Assembly: GCA_036507635.1 (NCBI GenBank)
Contig: DATCIQ010000003.1
Coordinates: forward strand, 1-55,512
Source of the DNA: Gammaproteobacteria bacterium
GTDB lineage: Bacteria > Pseudomonadota > Gammaproteobacteria > Steroidobacterales > Rariloculaceae
Reading direction: 5' to 3'
Length of the DNA: 55,512 bases
Shown: one piece after another, positions 4,870-12,825 of the stretch
How the letters are laid out: every line of letters starts with the position of its first letter
Position numbering within the stretch: position 1 is the first letter of the stretch
Made by a program: the position numbers and the translations under genes
Notes under the pieces: model-generated
The model's database searches: none
The model's input: only the letters and a program-made list of their open reading frames with translations
Told to the model about the DNA's origin: nothing

Positions 4870-5169
4870 ATGGCGCTGACGAAAGCAGACATGGCAGAGT
4901 CATTGTTCAACGAGCTTGGGCTCAACAAGCGCGAAGCGCGCGAGCTCGTCGATCTCTTCTTCGAGGATTTGCGCGCGGCACTATCTTCTGGCGAGCAAGT
5001 CAAACTTTCCGGGTTCGGAAATTTCGATCTGCGCGACAAGAATCAACGTCCCGGTCGCAATCCGAAAACAGGCGAGGAAATACCGATCACGGCGAGACGC
5101 GTCGTGACGTTCCGGCCCGGCCAGAAGCTCAAGGCACGAGTGGAAGCGTATGCTGGAACCCGGGAATAA
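4870..5169 (+). CDS. ihfA: Integration host factor alpha subunit
   Basis: 99 aa, [10 protein letters not shown]...[26 protein letters not shown], an IHF/HU fold. Confidence 0.96.
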
Positions 5170-5506
5170 CGACGACCTTCCACCGATCCCAGGCAAGCGC
5201 TACTTCACCATCGGTGAGGTGAGCGAGCTCTGCGGCGTCAAGCCGCATGTGCTGCGCTACTGGGAGCAGGAGTTCCCGCAGCTCAAGCCCGTGAAACGGC
5301 GCGGCAACCGCCGCTACTACCAACGCCAGGACGTGCTGATCATTCGTCAGATCCGCAGTCTCCTTTACGAACAAGGGTTTACGATCGGCGGGGCCCGGCA
5401 GAAGCTCACCGGACAAGAGGCGCGCAGCGACCTGAGCCAGAGCCAGCAAATCATCCGCCAGGTGCGGACGGAGCTCGAGGAAGTTCTCAAGGTCCTGCGG
5501 CGTTGA
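5150..5506 (+). CDS. MerR-family transcriptional regulator conserved downstream of ihfA
   Basis: [25 protein letters not shown]...RRYY is a MerR helix-turn-helix. It overlaps the ihfA 3' end by 20 nt. Confidence 0.88.
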
Positions 5507-5566
5507 CCCGACGCTCGAGAACGCGGCCACCGACCCCTTCCGTTACGCTAAACTCATTCCCTCGAT

Positions 5567-5643
5567 CGGGGCGTGGCGCAGCCTGGTAGCGCACTTGCAT
5601 GGGGCGCAAGAGGTCGCTGGTTCGAATCCAGTCGCCCCGACCA
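5567..5643 (+). tRNA. tRNA-Pro (anticodon GGG)
   Basis: A cloverleaf is readable. Acceptor stem CGGGGCG/CGCCCCG, D stem GCGC/GCGC, anticodon stem CTTGC/GCAAG with loop AT-GGG-GC, T arm GGTTCGAATCC, and an encoded CCA end. Confidence 0.93.
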
Positions 5644-5680
5644 CTCAGAAAAAAATACGTTGCGAGGGTGACGGCGGGCC

Positions 5681-6955
5681 TTGTTCATTGAGCAATACAG
5701 ATTGGAGACGAATCCGTTTGCCGCGGACCGGGTACGTCCGTTCTTCTCGTCACACTCGGGCCGTTACGCCGCCACTAAGATAACGAAGGTATTCAGCGAG
5801 CATATTCAGTGCCTGGGCTTGTCGGGTCCGGCCGGCGTAGGCAAAACCGCGCTCATCCACCAGCAGCTTCGCAACCTCCGCAACGTCAACGTGAGCTGGA
5901 TCAAGCCTGACACCGACGATGCCGGGCTATGCTTGAGAAAGCTCGTTCGCGATCTGGGCCCCGGGCCCATCGACGCGACCCCCGGCGAGCTCAGGAACAT
6001 TCTGCAGGTGTTTCTGCGGCACCAGGCCGGCAGCGGCCGGCGCTCCCAGATCGTCGCCGACGGCATCGAGCGGCACTCGCCGGAAGTGATGCGTGAGCTC
6101 GAAGCCTTGAGCCGGTTACGGTTACGCGGACGCGGGCTCGTGCAGCTCATTCTGCTCACGCGCAACGACGAGCTCGTCGAGAATTTCCTCGCGCAACACG
6201 ACAGCGGACCGTTGGCTCGGGCACTCCATCACCGGTTGAGCGGCTTCACGCTCGAGGAGACTCGGACGTACTTGCGTGCGTCCCTTCACGGCGCCGGCTG
6301 TCCCTGGTTCGAGGAATTGTTCCCCGAAGAGGCCATCGTCGACGTCCAGGCTTTCACGCAGGGCGTGATCCGCGATATCGACGCGCTCGTTCGCGGGGGG
6401 CTCGAGTTGCTTGCGCTGCGCTCCCGCAACGCCGTGTCCCAGCCGCGTTTGACCCCCGGTCTGCTCCGCGAGGTAGCTCTGACACTGCACCTCAAATATG
6501 AGCCGGCCGCGTGGAAGCTGGCGCAAGAGGAGACGCTCTCCGCCGATGCCGTGCACTTGAGCGATCCGGCGGAGCTGCGCATCGAGGCGGCCCGCTTGCT
6601 CGTGACGAGCGGCGGACAGCTCGTTGCCGATATCTCACTGGACAGACCGCGTATGGTGCTCGGGCGCGACACGAGCTGCGATATCAGTCTCGACAGCAAC
6701 TACGTGAGCCGGTACCAGAATCTTTTCATGGAGACGACCGAAGGCTGGATGCTCATCGACTTGAACAGCAGGAATGGCTGCTTCGTCAACGGCCGCCGCG
6801 TCAGCGAGCACCATCTGCGCGACGGCGATTTGATCTCCGTCGGCCAACACCAGCTCCGCTTTACCGGGCCGAGCGCCGCGTGGATCGGAACGCGCGAAGA
6901 GACGGAGAGCGTCCCGCAATCCGCAACGAAGCAGGCGGCGGATCTAGGCGGCTAG
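5681..6955 (+). CDS. ExeA/GspA-like P-loop NTPase (AAA_22-like) fused to a C-terminal FHA domain
   Basis: 424 aa. TTG is the only in-frame start after the stop at 5669. The N-terminus YRLETNPF and Walker A GPAGVGKT (5825-5848) resemble ExeA-type ATPases. The C-terminus [20 protein letters not shown]...[13 protein letters not shown]...[13 protein letters not shown] is FHA-like. Confidence 0.75.
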
Positions 6956-6973
6956 GGCTTCCGTTCCCCCTCC

Positions 6974-8272
6974 TCAAGGCGCGCCGGCGGGACGCAACAG
7001 GTGCTCGCTCCGGTTCTGATGCACGTCGCTCGCACCCGCGACGCGGTCTTCGATACCGAGCAGAATGGGCGCCGCATTGCGCCGATAGATGTTGGCCTTG
7101 GCGTTATAGACCTTCCTCGTGATGCCGTGCTTGTCGTTGATGATGATGCGGCGCACCGTGAACTTGCCGTTGTCGAGCTTCGTGCCCGTCAAGTAGCACT
7201 TGATGAGCTCGACGCGATCTCCGGAAAGCACGATACCGGTGAGCTGCTCCATGCTGCGCGCCGCGCGAGCCACGAATTCGATCGAATCCAGCGTGACATG
7301 TCCCACGGCGTCAGCCCCATTGACCGGCATCTGCGTCGTAAACTCGCCGACCAACACCTGATCCGACATTGCTCTTTCGATGATGCGCGCGAGCGCGATG
7401 GTCACGTCGCCGACGATATAGTTGTATAAGGTCGGGTTCAGGCCTTCGGCCTGATGGAACTCGTAGCTGCCCCCGACGTGGAAGCAGGCCCGGATTCGCG
7501 GCACAGTGTTCTGCCGCGCCTTGCTGCGCGCGATCGCGTTGTCCGCGACGACCAAGTGCATGAAGTGAAAGAGATTGATGTTCGCTTCGAGCGTCAGGTC
7601 GCGGTTCCAGACATAGAATCCGTCGCCCGTCGTCGACCGGGCGAAATCGATGCCGATCTTCTGGCCCGAGAGCTTGTGCTGCGCCGAATTCAAGGAGTAC
7701 GAGAGGCTGTTGAGCTGCGTCATCTGCTCGAACGGGCTCAACAAGCTGAAGCCGACAATATCGAACAACGCGACGGCACGGCTCGGGACGTACGTGATGC
7801 TGTACCGTTTGATCATCTTCTCGATGATGCGCTGTTGCGAAGGATTGTCCGAAACGGGCAGCCGCAGAGGCAAGTAGGTCACGTCGATCCCGAGCAGCTT
7901 CGACACCTTGGCCATTTGGTCGGGGTCGAGCCTGCGGTGACCGGACAACAGCGACTTGAAAAAATCCTCGGAAGGGCGCGCGCGGACGGCGCCTGGCGCC
8001 GCCTTGCCGTTGCCGCTCTGGCCCGCATCGGCGGCGTGCGCGGAGAACGCCGCGACCGCGTAGTGCGGAACGACGAGCAGCTCGATCCCGTTCTCGCGCG
8101 GGCACCAGTTCAAGAGGACGTTCTCGCCGAGGCCCCATTGCTGATGCAGACACTTGTCGAGGAAGATGAGATTGCTGCGCTCGATGAGACTCATTTCATG
8201 AGTGATCGAGGAAAGGGCGTCCAGGTAGCTACCGACGCTCGCGAGCTTGAATATGCCGGAGTCTGAGTCCAT
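6974..8272 (-). CDS. Class III nucleotidyl (adenylate/guanylate) cyclase-like protein with uncharacterised N- and C-terminal domains
   Basis: 432 aa. The central region has cyclase-homology signatures: AVALFDIVGFS (first metal Asp), TTGDGFYVW (second metal Asp), IRACFHVGGSYEF and GDVTIALARIIE. The flanking ~160-aa N-terminal and ~95-aa C-terminal regions match nothing I recognise. Confidence 0.65.
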   Translation of the reverse strand: MDSDSGIFKLASVGSYLDALSSITHEMSLIERSNLIFLDKCLHQQWGLGENVLLNWCPRENGIELLVVPHYAVAAFSAHAADAGQSGNGKAAPGAVRARPSEDFFKSLLSGHRRLDPDQMAKVSKLLGIDVTYLPLRLPVSDNPSQQRIIEKMIKRYSITYVPSRAVALFDIVGFSLLSPFEQMTQLNSLSYSLNSAQHKLSGQKIGIDFARSTTGDGFYVWNRDLTLEANINLFHFMHLVVADNAIARSKARQNTVPRIRACFHVGGSYEFHQAEGLNPTLYNYIVGDVTIALARIIERAMSDQVLVGEFTTQMPVNGADAVGHVTLDSIEFVARAARSMEQLTGIVLSGDRVELIKCYLTGTKLDNGKFTVRRIIINDKHGITRKVYNAKANIYRRNAAPILLGIEDRVAGASDVHQNRSEHLLRPAGAP

Positions 8273-8429
8273 GCGCGCGCCGTGATGGGCCTCGCGCGAT
8301 CATACTCTTGAGTCCATACGTCGCAAAGCGCCGTTAGCGGGTTGTATTAGCGTGGTTTTCGTAGCCATATGGTTGCCCTCGTGAAGCCGTGACGTGATAA
8401 TCGGCGCCCCGTTTGAACGAAGAGTCTTC

Positions 8430-10118
8430 ATGACTGACAACCAGCGAGGCGGTCGCGACCCGCGCCGGTATTCGCGGACCGTCGTCGACGGCGCCGAGAG
8501 GGCGCCGGGGCGCGCGATGCTTCGGGCCGTCGGCTTTGCCGATGCCGATTTCGCGAAGCCGCAGGTCGGCATCGCGTCGGCCTGGAGCATGGTCACGCCC
8601 TGCAACATGCATCTCGACACGCTCGCGCGCGAAGCTCAGGCGGGCGTCGATGGCGCCGGGGGCAAAGCCGTGCCGTTCAATACGATCACGGTGTCCGACG
8701 GCATCTCGATGGGCACGCCGGGGATGCGTTACTCGCTGATCTCGCGGGAAGTCATCGCCGACTCGATCGAGACCGTCGTCGCCGCCGAAGGCCTCGACGG
8801 CATCGTGACGATCGGCGGCTGTGACAAGAACATGCCCGGATGCGTCATGGCCATGGCCCGTCTCGATCGGCCGTCGGTGTTCGTCTATGGCGGCACGATT
8901 AAGCCCGGTCCGAAACACCGCGATATCGTCTCGGTTTTCGAGGCCGTCGGCGGGCATGCCGCCGGTACCGTAAGCGATGCCGAGCTCAAGGAAGTCGAAT
9001 CGACGGCAATTCCCGGACCCGGATCCTGCGCCGGGATGTACACCGCCAACACGATGGCCTCGGCGATCGAGGCCCTGGGCTTGAGTCTCGCGAATAGCTC
9101 CGCTCAGGAAGCCGTGTCCGAGGCGAAACGCACCGATTGTCGGCGGGCCGGCGAAGCCGTCGTTGACCTGCTCGAGCGTGGAATCAGGCCCTCGGACATC
9201 CTCTGCAAGGAAGCGTTCGAGAATGCCATCGCGACGGTCATCGCGCTCGGCGGGTCGACGAACGCCGTATTGCACTTGCTCGCGATCGCGCATGAGGCGC
9301 GCGTCGCCTTGAGCCTCGACGATTTCACGCGCGTCGGCGCTCGCGTGCCGGTGCTCGCCGACCTGCGCCCGAGCGGACGCTTCATGATGTCGGAGCTCAT
9401 CCGCATCGGCGGGATCCGGCCCCTCATGAAGACGTTGCTCGATGCGGGGCTCTTGCACGGCCAATGCCTCACGGTCACGGGCCGTACGATGGCCGAGAAC
9501 CTCGCCGACGTCGCGCCGTACCCGGCCGACCAGACCATCGTGCGGCCGCTCGACAAGCCGCTCAAAGCCGACAGCCACATTGCCATCCTCTATGGCAACT
9601 TGGCGCCCGAGGGCGCCGTCGCGAAGATCTCGGGCAAGGAAGGCATGCAATTCGAGGGCAAGGCGCGCGTGTTCCATTCCGAGGAGGATGCATTGCGGGC
9701 GATTCTCGACGGCACGGTCGTCACGGGCGACGTCGTCGTGATCCGCTACGAAGGGCCGAAGGGCGGGCCGGGAATGCGTGAAATGCTGAGCCCGACCGGC
9801 GCGATCATCGGCCGGGGCTTGGGAGCCAAGGTAGCTTTGATTACGGACGGCCGGTTCTCGGGGGGCAGCCATGGCTTCGTGGTGGGCCACGTGGCGCCTG
9901 AAGCCGCGGTCGGCGGGCCGATTGCCCTTATCGAGCAAGGCGATGTGATCGTCATCGACGCGGGCAAGAAGACCATCGACGTGCGCGTGACGGCGGACGA
10001 GCTCGAGCGACGCCGGCGAGCGTGGCGCCCGCGTGCAGGTCAAGAGCTGCGCGGATTGCTGGCCAAGTACGCGCGACTCGTGAGCTCGGCGTCGCAGGGG
10101 GCCATCACCGACTTGTAG
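8430..10118 (+). CDS. ilvD: Dihydroxy-acid dehydratase
   Basis: MTDNQ...[26 protein letters not shown] and [10 protein letters not shown] motifs. The ATG at 8430 is preferred over the GTG at 8394. Confidence 0.95.
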
Positions 10119-10191: not shown

Positions 10192-12825
10192 ATGAACATG
10201 TCCCTGCATCGTGCGCTTGTCGATCACAGCGTAGATACGCCTTACCCGGACTCGCGCTGGGTCGTCATGAAATTCGGCGGCAAAAGTGTCGCGACCGCCG
10301 ACAACTGGACCAAGATCGCGGGCCTCTTGCGCGACCGCCTCGATGAGGACGTCACGCCGGTCGTCTGTCATTCCGCGCTGGCCGGCGTGTCGAACGCTTT
10401 GATCGCGCTTCTCGACTTGGCGGTCGCCGGCGGCTCGACCGAGGATGCGCTCGACGCGATCGTCGATCAGCATCGGGCACTCGCTCACGATCTCAAGATC
10501 GATCCAACCGTCACCGACGAGATTTTTGCGGCTGTCGGTGAGCTCGTGGCGGGCGCGAAGCTCGTCGGCGAGGTCAGCCCTCGAGTTCATGCGCGAGTGC
10601 TTGCGAGCGGCGAGCTTGCCGCGACGAAGCTCGGCGTCGAGTACTTGCGCACGCAAGGCTTGCCAGCTCAGTGGCTCGATGCGCGCGAGCTGCTGCAAAG
10701 CACGGCCAGCAAGGATCAGACCGAGCGGGCGCGTTTCTTGTCCGCGCGCTGCGGCTTCGATCCCGACCCCGGGCTCGAATCCCGCCTCGTGGGGCTCGAC
10801 GGCTTCGCCGTCACGCAAGGCTTCATCGCGCGCAATGAGTCCGGCGAGACCGTGTTGCTCGGGCGCGGCGGCTCGGACACCTCGAGTGCGTACCTCGCAG
10901 GTAAGCTCCGCGCACGCCGCCTCGAGATTTGGACCGACGTGCCGGGCTTCTACAGCGCCGACCCGCGCGCCGTGCCGTCCGCGCGCTTGATTCGGAGCCT
11001 CCACTATCAAGAAGCCCAGGAAATCGCGTCGGCCGGGGGCGGCATTCTGCATCCGCGCAGCATCTCTCCGGTGCGCAACTCAGGAATCCCGCTGTTTCTT
11101 AAATGTACCGCCCATCCCGAATGGGAGGGTAGTGTGATCTCGAATGCCGTCGACGACGGCATGCCCCAGCTCAAGGCCATTTCGCATCGCAGCGGCATCA
11201 CGCTCGTCTCCATGGAATCGATGGAAATGTGGCATCAGGTCGGGTTTCTCGCCGATGCCTTCGAATGCTTTCGCAAGCACGGCATCTCGGTCGACTTGAT
11301 ATCGACTTCGGAAAGCAACGTCACGGTCTCGATCGACGTCGGCGCCAACGTGACCGACCACACCGGCGTCGAGAAACTTGCCGAGGATCTAAGACGTCTG
11401 TGTCGCGTGACCGTGATCAAGGACTGCGCGGCGATCACGCTCGTCGGCCGGCGCATCCGCACGATACTGCACGAGCTCGGTCCGGTGCTCGAAGTTTTCC
11501 AAGAGCAGCGCGTACACCTCGTGACGCAGGCCGCCAACGATTTGAACCTCACGTTCGTGGTCAGCTCCGAGCACGCTTACAGGCTGGTACAGCGCTTGCA
11601 CGGCCTCCTCGTCGACAAGTTCGAGGGCGGCGTATTCGGCAAGACGTGGGAGCAGCTTGTGAGCCCCGCCGCAGAAACCGAGCGTGCGGCGCGGACCGTT
11701 CCTTGGTGGGTCACGCGGCGCACGGAGCTCATTGCCATCGCGGAGGCGCGCGGGTCGGCATACGTCTACGACCGTGCGAGTATCGAACGGGCCATCAAAT
11801 CGCTGCAATCGCTGCGCTCCATAGACGCCGTCTTCTACGCGATGAAGGCCAACGCCAATCGGGAGATCTTGAAGCTCGCGCATGGTCTCGGGGCCAACTT
11901 CGAGTGTGTCTCGCCCGGCGAGATCAGGCGCGTGCTCGAGCTATACCCCAAGCTCGATCGGCACCGCATCTTGTTCACACCGAACTTTGCGCCGCGCGGC
12001 GAATACGAATGGGCCCTCGAGCAGGGGGTATGGCTCACGCTCGACAATTTGTTCGTGTTGCGCGAGTGGGGGCACCTCTTCAAGAACCGCGAGCTCTTCA
12101 TCCGCATCGATACCGGACAAGGGCGGGGGCATCACGAGCATGTACGCACGGCCGGGATGCACTCCAAGTTCGGTGTTCCGTTGTTCGAAATGGATGAGCT
12201 CGGCAAGCTCGTCAAGAAGAGCGGCGCGCGCGTCGTCGGCCTGCACGCCCATACGGGCAGCGGCGTGCTCGCCGCGGAGGCTTGGCGGGCGACGGGCGAG
12301 CAGCTGCTGGAGCTCACCAGAGCGTTTCCGGACGTCCGCTACATCGACTTGGGCGGCGGGCTCGGTGTGCCCGAGAAACCGGGCCAAGTGCCGCTCGATC
12401 TCGACGACCTCGACACGCTGCTCGCGGGCATCAAGACGAGCTGCGGCGACCGCGAGCTGTGGCTCGAACCCGGCCGCTACATCGTGGCCCAAGCCGGCGT
12501 TCTGTTGACGCGAGTCACGCAAACCAAGGGAAAGGGCGCCATGCAATACGTCGGCGTCAACGCAGGCATGAACGCGCTGATTCGGCCCGCTCTGTACGGC
12601 GCCTATCACGAGATCGTGAATCTGTCCCGGCTCGGCCGGCCGGCGACGGAAATCGTGACGGTCGTCGGTCCCATCTGCGAGACCGGCGATCGCCTCGGCT
12701 CCGATCGGCTCATGCCGCCTTCGGCTGAAGGCGACGTGATCCTCGTCGCGAATGCCGGCGCCTACGGTTACGTCATGAGCTCGCGCTACAACCTGCGTGA
12801 GTTTCTCGACGAGGTGCTGGTGTAG
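10192..12825 (+). CDS. Bifunctional aspartate kinase / diaminopimelate decarboxylase (LysC-LysA fusion)
   Basis: 877 aa. The N-terminal half has VVMKFGGKSV and ACT-like regions (aspartokinase). The C-terminal half has AVFYAMKANAN, HAHTGSG, DLGGGLGV and CETGD (PLP-dependent DAP decarboxylase). Confidence 0.9.
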   Translation: MNMSLHRALVDHSVDTPYPDSRWVVMKFGGKSVATADNWTKIAGLLRDRLDEDVTPVVCHSALAGVSNALIALLDLAVAGGSTEDALDAIVDQHRALAHDLKIDPTVTDEIFAAVGELVAGAKLVGEVSPRVHARVLASGELAATKLGVEYLRTQGLPAQWLDARELLQSTASKDQTERARFLSARCGFDPDPGLESRLVGLDGFAVTQGFIARNESGETVLLGRGGSDTSSAYLAGKLRARRLEIWTDVPGFYSADPRAVPSARLIRSLHYQEAQEIASAGGGILHPRSISPVRNSGIPLFLKCTAHPEWEGSVISNAVDDGMPQLKAISHRSGITLVSMESMEMWHQVGFLADAFECFRKHGISVDLISTSESNVTVSIDVGANVTDHTGVEKLAEDLRRLCRVTVIKDCAAITLVGRRIRTILHELGPVLEVFQEQRVHLVTQAANDLNLTFVVSSEHAYRLVQRLHGLLVDKFEGGVFGKTWEQLVSPAAETERAARTVPWWVTRRTELIAIAEARGSAYVYDRASIERAIKSLQSLRSIDAVFYAMKANANREILKLAHGLGANFECVSPGEIRRVLELYPKLDRHRILFTPNFAPRGEYEWALEQGVWLTLDNLFVLREWGHLFKNRELFIRIDTGQGRGHHEHVRTAGMHSKFGVPLFEMDELGKLVKKSGARVVGLHAHTGSGVLAAEAWRATGEQLLELTRAFPDVRYIDLGGGLGVPEKPGQVPLDLDDLDTLLAGIKTSCGDRELWLEPGRYIVAQAGVLLTRVTQTKGKGAMQYVGVNAGMNALIRPALYGAYHEIVNLSRLGRPATEIVTVVGPICETGDRLGSDRLMPPSAEGDVILVANAGAYGYVMSSRYNLREFLDEVLV

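Follow-up and report, generated by a model that had tools for sequence, protein, structure and literature searches.

Class III nucleotidyl cyclases are built around a cyclase homology domain (CHD; PF00211) of about 190 residues with a palm fold (beta-alpha-alpha-beta-beta-alpha-beta), often preceded by a regulatory domain. Examples are the Chlamydomonas guanylate cyclase (3et6), Rv1625c (4p2f), Pseudomonas aeruginosa CyaB (3r5g) and Cya2 (2w01). AAA_22 NTPases are represented by ExeA/GspA, the MshM type and TIGR03015, and FHA-domain proteins such as GarA/OdhI, Rv1747 and FhaB/FipA belong to actinobacterial Ser/Thr kinase pathways. In Pycsar and CBASS, a cyclase-type protein stands beside a second gene. 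We analysed a stretch of 55,512 nucleotides (nt) from a gammaproteobacterium (contig DATCIQ010000003.1, assembly GCA_036507635.1; hereafter the window), in which two convergent genes, here called A and B, lie between tRNA-Pro and ilvD. Gene A encodes an ExeA/GspA-like P-loop NTPase (AAA_22) with a C-terminal FHA domain, as identified by Pfam. Gene B is predicted to encode a soluble member of a large uncharacterised family with a strongly diverged class III nucleotidyl-cyclase (palm) domain. We favour, with moderate confidence, the view that B, a native gene, encodes a signalling enzyme from the class III cyclase superfamily and that A, a clade-specific FHA-NTPase, is functionally tied to it. 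The two genes are placed as follows.

5681..6955, + strand: gene A, 424 amino acids (aa), TTG start, beginning 38 nt past the tRNA
6974..8272, - strand: gene B, 432 aa

Gene B has no sequence match in Pfam, NCBIfam, PADLOC or the PDB, and phmmer returned nothing relevant. A profile of 69 B sequences searched against the PDB found no cyclase, and the weak PDB sequence matches of B were rejected as a His-tag artefact and methyltransferases. At 90% identity the family falls into more than 3,700 homologous clusters, and at 50% identity it has 449 representatives. An AlphaFold model of B built on 69 diverse sequences reached a predicted local distance difference test score (pLDDT) of 90.8 and a predicted TM-score (pTM) of 0.89. 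The top 50 Foldseek matches of this model in the PDB were all catalytic domains of class III adenylyl or guanylyl cyclases (E 1.2e-8 to 1.6e-6, probability 1.0, TM-score on target up to 0.68). Six solved cyclase-domain sequences were rebuilt from PDB alignments and compared with the B family profile in hhalign, which aligned them in the canonical register over residues 167-312 (E 2.4e-4, probability 43%). The divergent class III cyclase-like core proposed for B in a first-pass annotation, which was made from the sequence alone, is thus borne out by structure and profile-profile comparison only. Because some pipelines already label relatives of B as 'class 3 adenylate cyclase' or 'adenylate/guanylate cyclase domain-containing protein', the link to the cyclase superfamily is not wholly new; the B family itself is undescribed in Pfam and NCBIfam. 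A literature search gave nothing relevant on a cyclase-like family of this kind or on FHA domains in bacterial adenylate cyclases. Assignment of B as a GGDEF diguanylate cyclase was also considered. It was rejected, as there was no Pfam GGDEF match, the hairpin motif is TTGDGF and the matching PDB folds are class III cyclases; the sole diguanylate cyclase match was a viral prediction at E 0.27.

The first-pass annotation had described the cyclase-like core as lying between two domains that could not be assigned. This holds for the N-terminal 157 residues or so. The beta-rich C-terminal part is most likely a piece of an enlarged cyclase domain, given that the Foldseek alignments of the model span 240-266 columns compared with 183-216 residues for the cyclase domains. 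The regions and key residues of B are located as follows.

7043..7804, - strand: cyclase-homology core, about residues 157-410
7760-7762, - strand: metal-binding Asp D171, motif LFDIVGFS
7622-7624, - strand: metal-binding Asp D217, motif RSTTGDGFYVWNR (RSTTGDGF)
7385-7387, - strand: R296, motif IVGDVTIALAR, the counterpart of the GDxVNxAxR helix
7103-7105, - strand: N390, invariant
7805..8272, - strand: N-terminal region, residues 1-156, a fold without known match

Conservation was counted by column in 69 diverse members from Gamma- and Alphaproteobacteria, with identities as low as 28%. Of these, 64 retain D171, and 62 each retain D217 and R296; N390, W222 and G288 are present in all 69. In the hhalign register, D171 and D217 align to both metal aspartates of the cyclases. 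Residues conserved specifically in this family are Q305, the DKHG motif (380-383), N390 and K392. In canonical cyclases, the pair of residues that specifies the base is Lys/Asp for ATP or Glu/Cys (or Ser) for GTP. B has neither pair. S213 stands at the Lys/Glu position (Ser/Thr in 64/69) and Y285 at the second, Asp/Cys position (Tyr/Phe in 57/69). The position of the catalytic Asn, four before R296, is taken by I292 (Ile/Val in 61/69). The strong purifying selection on D171, D217, the putative triphosphate-contacting Arg and the family-specific invariants suggests that B may bind a nucleoside triphosphate with two metal ions and make a nucleotide-derived signal. B lacks the residues by which canonical cyclases choose ATP or GTP, as well as the transition-state Asn, and on this basis it probably has a non-standard substrate or product.

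Three parts make up the N-terminus of B. Residues ~13-82 form an alpha/beta domain in which W46, G49 and W56 are conserved; a disordered linker follows at ~85-100, and residues 102-156 are a helical segment. In distant relatives this segment accompanies the cyclase core, and the distant fused homologues match B from about residue 102. A separate AlphaFold model of residues 1-157 had a pLDDT of 85, and Foldseek against the PDB gave no significant match for it (best E 0.65, probability 0.07). An identity as a helix-turn-helix domain, raised by the JGI name 'YdaS/Cro' and by two HTH_3 matches at E 0.066, was rejected for lack of a significant PDB match of this model. The region before the core may act as a regulatory region. 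In distant homologues, B is fused to REC at its N- or C-terminus or to REC-EAL (P0247, P0272, P0280, P0282, P0292, P0297 and P0302), and the REC-EAL fusions have other sequence in place of the first ~100 residues of B. These fusions place the B domain in signal transduction.

B homologues of Alphaproteobacteria (Nisaea, Thalassobaculum and metagenomic contigs) adjoin genes for pentapeptide-repeat proteins of about 400 aa. In three of seven alphaproteobacterial contexts, this neighbour is tail-to-tail with the B homologue at a distance of -8 to +13 nt. The genes in question (L141:4570-5760 and 7139-8344; L142:4748-5989; L147:5159-6328; L149:5178-6395) match Pfam Pentapeptide at E 1e-60 to 1e-65, and the three tail-to-tail ones are mutual orthologues with 38-40% identity. 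It seems that members of the B family repeatedly have a partner gene in tight convergent orientation.

In the window, the partner is gene A. Both of its domains scored above their Pfam cutoffs, which confirms the fusion of an ExeA-like NTPase to an FHA domain read from the sequence at first. The TTG start is consistent with its homologues, which align from residue 1. The domains and motifs of A are as follows.

5807..6166, + strand: AAA_22 domain, residues 43-162 (Pfam 38.4 bits, cutoff 27)
5825-5848, + strand: Walker A motif GPAGVGKT, G49-T56
6059-6061 and 6068-6070, + strand: D127 and E130 of the Walker B-like motif IVADGIE
6656..6844, + strand: FHA domain, residues 326-388 (Pfam 62.6 bits, cutoff 20.7, E 4.9e-17)

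Among 34 homologues of A, G49, G54 and K55 are invariant, and D127 and E130 are conserved in at least 90%. Residues 1-237 align with TIGR03015 (XrtA/PEP-CTERM system-associated ATPase) at 52.6 bits and do not reach its cutoff of 324.5. Conservation within A is highest in the FHA domain, with residues 320-394 nearly invariant in the same 34 homologues. Its phosphothreonine contacts are R329 (GR), S343-R344 (SR) and N365-G366 (NG), of which R329, S343 and N365 are invariant; the His that usually follows SR in FHA domains is Gln346 in A. By PDB sequence search, the closest solved relatives are the FHA domains of GarA, OdhI and Rv1747. These residues suggest that the FHA domain of A would read phosphothreonine. 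A literature search for a fusion of ExeA/AAA_22 with FHA gave nothing relevant.

When one genome per species was scanned, at least 322 species had a relative of B, and 80 loci were fetched. Their hosts are Woeseiaceae, Lentisalinibacter and many uncultured Gammaproteobacteria from sediment and soil. In marine sediments, Woeseiaceae and their relatives rank among the most abundant bacteria. Both flanks are covered in 68 loci, and in every one of these B has merR/tRNA-Pro on one side and ilvD-lysAC on the other; its position is the same in a more distant gammaproteobacterium (L144/L145). In the clade that contains A, median identity to the window is 64% for B, 57% for A, 56% for pheT and 80% for ilvD; in Woeseiaceae it is 56% for B and 49% for pheT. 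B is therefore more conserved than pheT, and A evolves as slowly as pheT.

Only the clade nearest to the window has gene A. In a scan of metagenomes, A gave 60 loci, about 50 of them with enough DNA for its surroundings, with A at 49-99% identity. B stands convergent directly behind A in every A locus that extends far enough, and no case of A away from B was found among the A loci with enough DNA. The tail-to-tail pair is retained even where the tRNA-Pro/merR side is replaced (L084, L098, L111, L121 and L127). The spacing from stop to stop has a median of 13 nt and is mostly between -4 and +40 nt (66 loci). Where A is missing, the end of B is about 20 nt away from the 3' end of tRNA-Pro (L060), so gene A alone fills the classic tRNA-proximal slot, and it does so with no remaining trace of an integration mechanism. 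Of the two-gene signalling module first proposed to sit at the tRNA, the signalling pair stands, and so does the place at the tRNA as far as A is concerned; the insertion of B does not. Genes between B and the tRNA in the BroJett010 lineage show that this slot accepts different genes in different lineages. A CN_hydrolase gene (L144:7260-8315) follows B there, its first base being the last base of B, and a cupin gene (L144:8446-9456) lies between it and tRNA-Pro.

Two metagenome contigs are close to the window itself. One of 32.6 kb (L081, Ga0209320_10000179) is 99-100% identical to it from pheT to lysAC and probably represents the same population as the source of the window. The other, from a sister sample (L131:924-1616, Ga0209321_10021560), has a B identical to that of the window and only the C-terminal ~180 residues of A (linker and FHA), joined to unrelated upstream DNA. 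This fragment is either a strain variant without the NTPase half or an assembly chimera.

The remaining features of the locus are listed below.

5567..5643, + strand: tRNA-Pro(GGG), called by ARAGORN (Rfam tRNA, 61.9 bits), the left boundary of the locus
6956..6973: spacer of 18 nt between the convergent stop codons of A and B, GGCTTCCGTTCCCCCTCC, without hairpin
8273..8393: divergent intergenic region of B and ilvD, 121 nt, with promoter-like hexamers on each strand
8394..10118, + strand: ilvD (dihydroxy-acid dehydratase), the conserved right boundary, with the Pfam families of its orthologues in L144

The genes of the window run in the order rplT, pheS, pheT, ihfA, MerR-family gene, tRNA-Pro, A, B, ilvD and a fused aspartokinase/diaminopimelate-decarboxylase gene. 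The left block pheST-ihfA-merR-tRNA-Pro is conserved, and the same tRNA adjoins the locus in related genomes. Open reading frame (ORF) calls, the tRNA call and related genomes thus agree with the flanks as originally described, namely this block and ilvD. The stop of ihfA overlaps the start of the MerR-family gene by 20 nt (window 5150-5169), as in all related loci. The fusion gene right after ilvD (10192-12825, + strand) encodes 877 aa with aspartokinase (AA_kinase, ACT) and diaminopimelate decarboxylase (Orn_DAP_Arg_deC) parts, and it is also kept in all related loci. Coordinates and the folding of the junction likewise agree with the claim that A and B converge with stop codons exactly 18 nt apart and no hairpin. 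A search for a terminator-like site at the A/B junction found none, the 81-nt junction folded worse than shuffled sequences on both strands (z +2.9 and +2.4), and Rfam over positions 5000-9000 matched the tRNA only. The promoter-like sites between B and ilvD are at 8326-8299 (- strand) and 8373-8401 (+ strand) and are consensus matches only.

Loci without A usually contain a pyridoxal-phosphate (PLP) enzyme, a GlcD-like flavin adenine dinucleotide (FAD) oxidase and a Hanks-type Ser/Thr kinase between B and ilvD. By locus type, 50 were A-B-ilvD and 47 were B-(PALP)-FAD oxidase-Hanks kinase-ilvD; six had neither arrangement and none had both. The kinase is kept between B and ilvD in the Woeseiaceae loci L020-L080 (for example L038:4641-7091 and L060:7210-8451), and one version of it has a C-terminal Calx-beta domain. 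That one clade carries a phosphothreonine reader and the other a Ser/Thr kinase is suggestive of a linked theme. Twelve positions of B differ consistently between the clades with and without A, including TT versus SS at 214-215 beside D217. A clade-specific phospho-acceptor at this site was considered and set aside. The whole wider family has TT, and SS is peculiar to Woeseiaceae, so that the difference is uninformative about A.

These features can be joined in a working model. B would be the enzyme that makes the signal, and A might couple Ser/Thr phosphorylation to the B pathway. A may bind a phosphorylated partner, possibly B itself, or assemble a complex with it. At the hairpin-free convergent junction of about 13-18 nt, transcripts of the two genes could run into each other, and by such antisense interference the expression of one would damp that of the other. 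The junction probably couples the expression of A and B. A more far-reaching proposal is that B is the first member of a new class of signalling enzymes with a palm domain. It would make a non-canonical nucleotide messenger other than cAMP or cGMP, would be controlled through a novel N-terminal domain and interchangeable tail-to-tail partners or fused REC/EAL domains, and would link Ser/Thr phosphorylation to the new messenger. We consider this proposal unlikely on the present data. If it were true, B would be partnered by the FHA-NTPase in this lineage, by pentapeptide-repeat proteins in Rhodospirillales and elsewhere by fused REC or EAL, and the abundant Woeseiaceae-group bacteria of sediments would have Ser/Thr phosphorylation tied to a new second messenger.

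Several observations weigh against a signalling enzyme to which A is tied. As to the enzyme, Pfam Guanylate_cyc matches none of the 69 members of B even at E ≤ 1, and hhalign, with its probability of only 43%, is the sole sequence-profile method that links B to cyclases. Near R296, the hhalign register is shifted by one residue compared with the ungapped alignment, and the equivalence of the Arg is not certain. The substitutions at S213, Y285 and I292 are also expected of a non-catalytic pseudo-cyclase. B might then be a catalytically dead protein that acts as a nucleotide- or ligand-binding regulator or as a scaffold, with its conserved residues kept for binding. Replacement of the Lys/Asp pair and of the catalytic Asn would fit this explanation, as would the failure of Guanylate_cyc on the whole set. 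Some EAL proteins carry degenerate, regulatory GGDEF-type palm domains, and the REC-EAL-B architecture resembles them. However, degenerate palm domains usually lose the metal-binding Asp and Arg, and both metal Asp and the Arg are kept in about 90% of the members from Gamma- and Alphaproteobacteria. The invariant polar residues N390, K392, DKHG and Q305 also point to a complete active site. A dead enzyme is a possibility to be taken seriously, though we judge it to be a minor one.

The tie between A and B can be questioned in the same way. B occurs without A in 56 of 106 loci. Over most of the wider group B functions with no A present, which means that the core function of B cannot depend on A. 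The complementary occurrence of A and the kinase is fully confounded with phylogeny, there being two clades. The kinase lies one or two metabolic genes away from B and is part of the operon on the ilvD side, and a search for Hanks kinases (E < 0.01) found no kinase or phosphatase in the 55-kb window. A and B might therefore be functionally unrelated, A having been inserted once between tRNA-Pro and B and the two staying together by synteny. The loci without A, and the end of B close to tRNA-Pro in them, at a classic insertion slot, would be expected from such a history, and the whole block from pheT to lysAC is collinear anyway. But A is never found away from B, and the pair stays intact where the tRNA-Pro/merR side is replaced, whereas the other neighbours of B vary from locus to locus. 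Across A identities of 49-99% the spacer remains very short, and A evolves no faster than pheT. An accidental pairing thus appears improbable to us, and we retain a functional tie between A and B as the preferred reading.

The location of the genes next to a tRNA had led to the suggestion of a horizontally inserted defence module at a tRNA hotspot. Both genes were thought to be richer in A/T-ending codons than their neighbours, which is not so. The GC content at third codon positions (GC3) is 0.809 for A and 0.841 for B, compared with 0.835 for ilvD and 0.71-0.85 for the other 44 ORFs of the window, in which B is second-highest. The ORF list and a repeat search of the 55.5-kb window agree with the first impression that integrase and tRNA repeat are lacking. 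No integrase-like ORF was found from tRNA-Pro to ilvD, where A and B are the only ORFs of such size, and no copy of the tRNA 3' end (14-45 nt, mismatches allowed) elsewhere in the window. PADLOC gave no match for B and for A only PDC-M16A at E 0.077, which is noise. In tblastn searches of 72,556 plasmids and 50,697 phages, B had no match, and A matched only FHA domains in actinobacterial ABC-transporter genes. A library of viral structures searched with the B model gave only generic cyclase domains of giant viruses and phages.

The features of a tRNA-linked island, namely an integrase, a repeat of the tRNA end and an odd composition, are thus lacking. B is fixed at the site and only A is clade-restricted. 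Comparison of the junction found B at tRNA-Pro/ilvD with native composition throughout the Woeseiaceae-related group in the fetched loci whose contig reaches both flanks, contrary to an island, and the presence of B without A in about half of the loci is contrary to an obligatory two-gene module. The fixed position of B, together with its greater conservation than pheT, speaks against an island in itself, as defence genes are typically patchy and fast-evolving. A horizontally acquired two-gene module for anti-phage nucleotide signalling, integrated at tRNA-Pro, might be read from the adjoining tRNA 3' end, from an NTPase beside a cyclase-fold protein, from a gene arrangement unlike a textbook operon and from transposase genes 1.5-3.4 kb from the B homologue of the distant relative L149, but it is contradicted by the native GC3, the lack of integrase, att-like repeat, PADLOC match beyond noise, cyclic-nucleotide-binding effector and CD-NTase, the synteny and slow evolution of B, and its absence from plasmids and phages, and it is largely refuted and very improbable. 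The locus is native and vertically inherited and is not an inserted element. Proximity to a tRNA and unfamiliar domains do not make an island, and checks of composition and synteny settle the question fast.

Our study indicates that the B family is large and strongly conserved, and that it is a fixed chromosomal gene of Woeseiaceae and their relatives for which Pfam and NCBIfam have no model. Should B prove to be active as an enzyme, with its non-standard specificity residues, the class III cyclase superfamily would gain a signalling output. B would then also be an entry point to nucleotide signalling linked to Ser/Thr phosphorylation in uncultured Gammaproteobacteria.

In comparison with known systems, A-B resembles Pycsar and CBASS only in the placing of a cyclase-type protein beside a second gene. 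The architecture is unlike either, as had been noted from the sequence: no PADLOC model fits, the domains of A are AAA_22 and FHA, there is neither a cNMP-binding effector nor a CD-NTase fold, and the genes are convergent and do not form an operon. Unlike those systems, B keeps a fixed, syntenic place throughout a lineage and had no match in the plasmids and phages searched. Gene A shares with ExeA/GspA, MshM-type AAA_22 NTPases and TIGR03015 the 'Y.L..NPF' lead-in and the Walker A motif GxxGxGKT. It has an FHA domain in place of the C-terminal peptidoglycan-binding/transmembrane part of ExeA, and the identified neighbours of A from pheST to the aspartokinase fusion include no secretion, pilus or exosortase gene; its sole constant neighbour is B. 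The best FHA matches of A are GarA/OdhI, the Rv1747 FHA domain and FhaB/FipA, with which it shares the Arg, Ser and Asn contacts. Readers of the GarA/OdhI type have a single FHA domain, whereas that of A is fused to a P-loop NTPase, has Gln for the His of SxxH and has no kinase nearby in the A clade. In the case of B, the differences from the class III CHD are the lack of a Pfam/HMMER match, of the base-specifying pair and of the catalytic Asn, the larger domain of about 250 residues with the extra motifs WNR, DKHG and YNAK, and an N-terminal region of no known fold. B nevertheless shares with the CHD the palm fold, a preceding region in the place of the regulatory domain, and the same order of motifs, from FxDIxGF(T/S) through the GD hairpin to the GDxxxxLARxxE helix.

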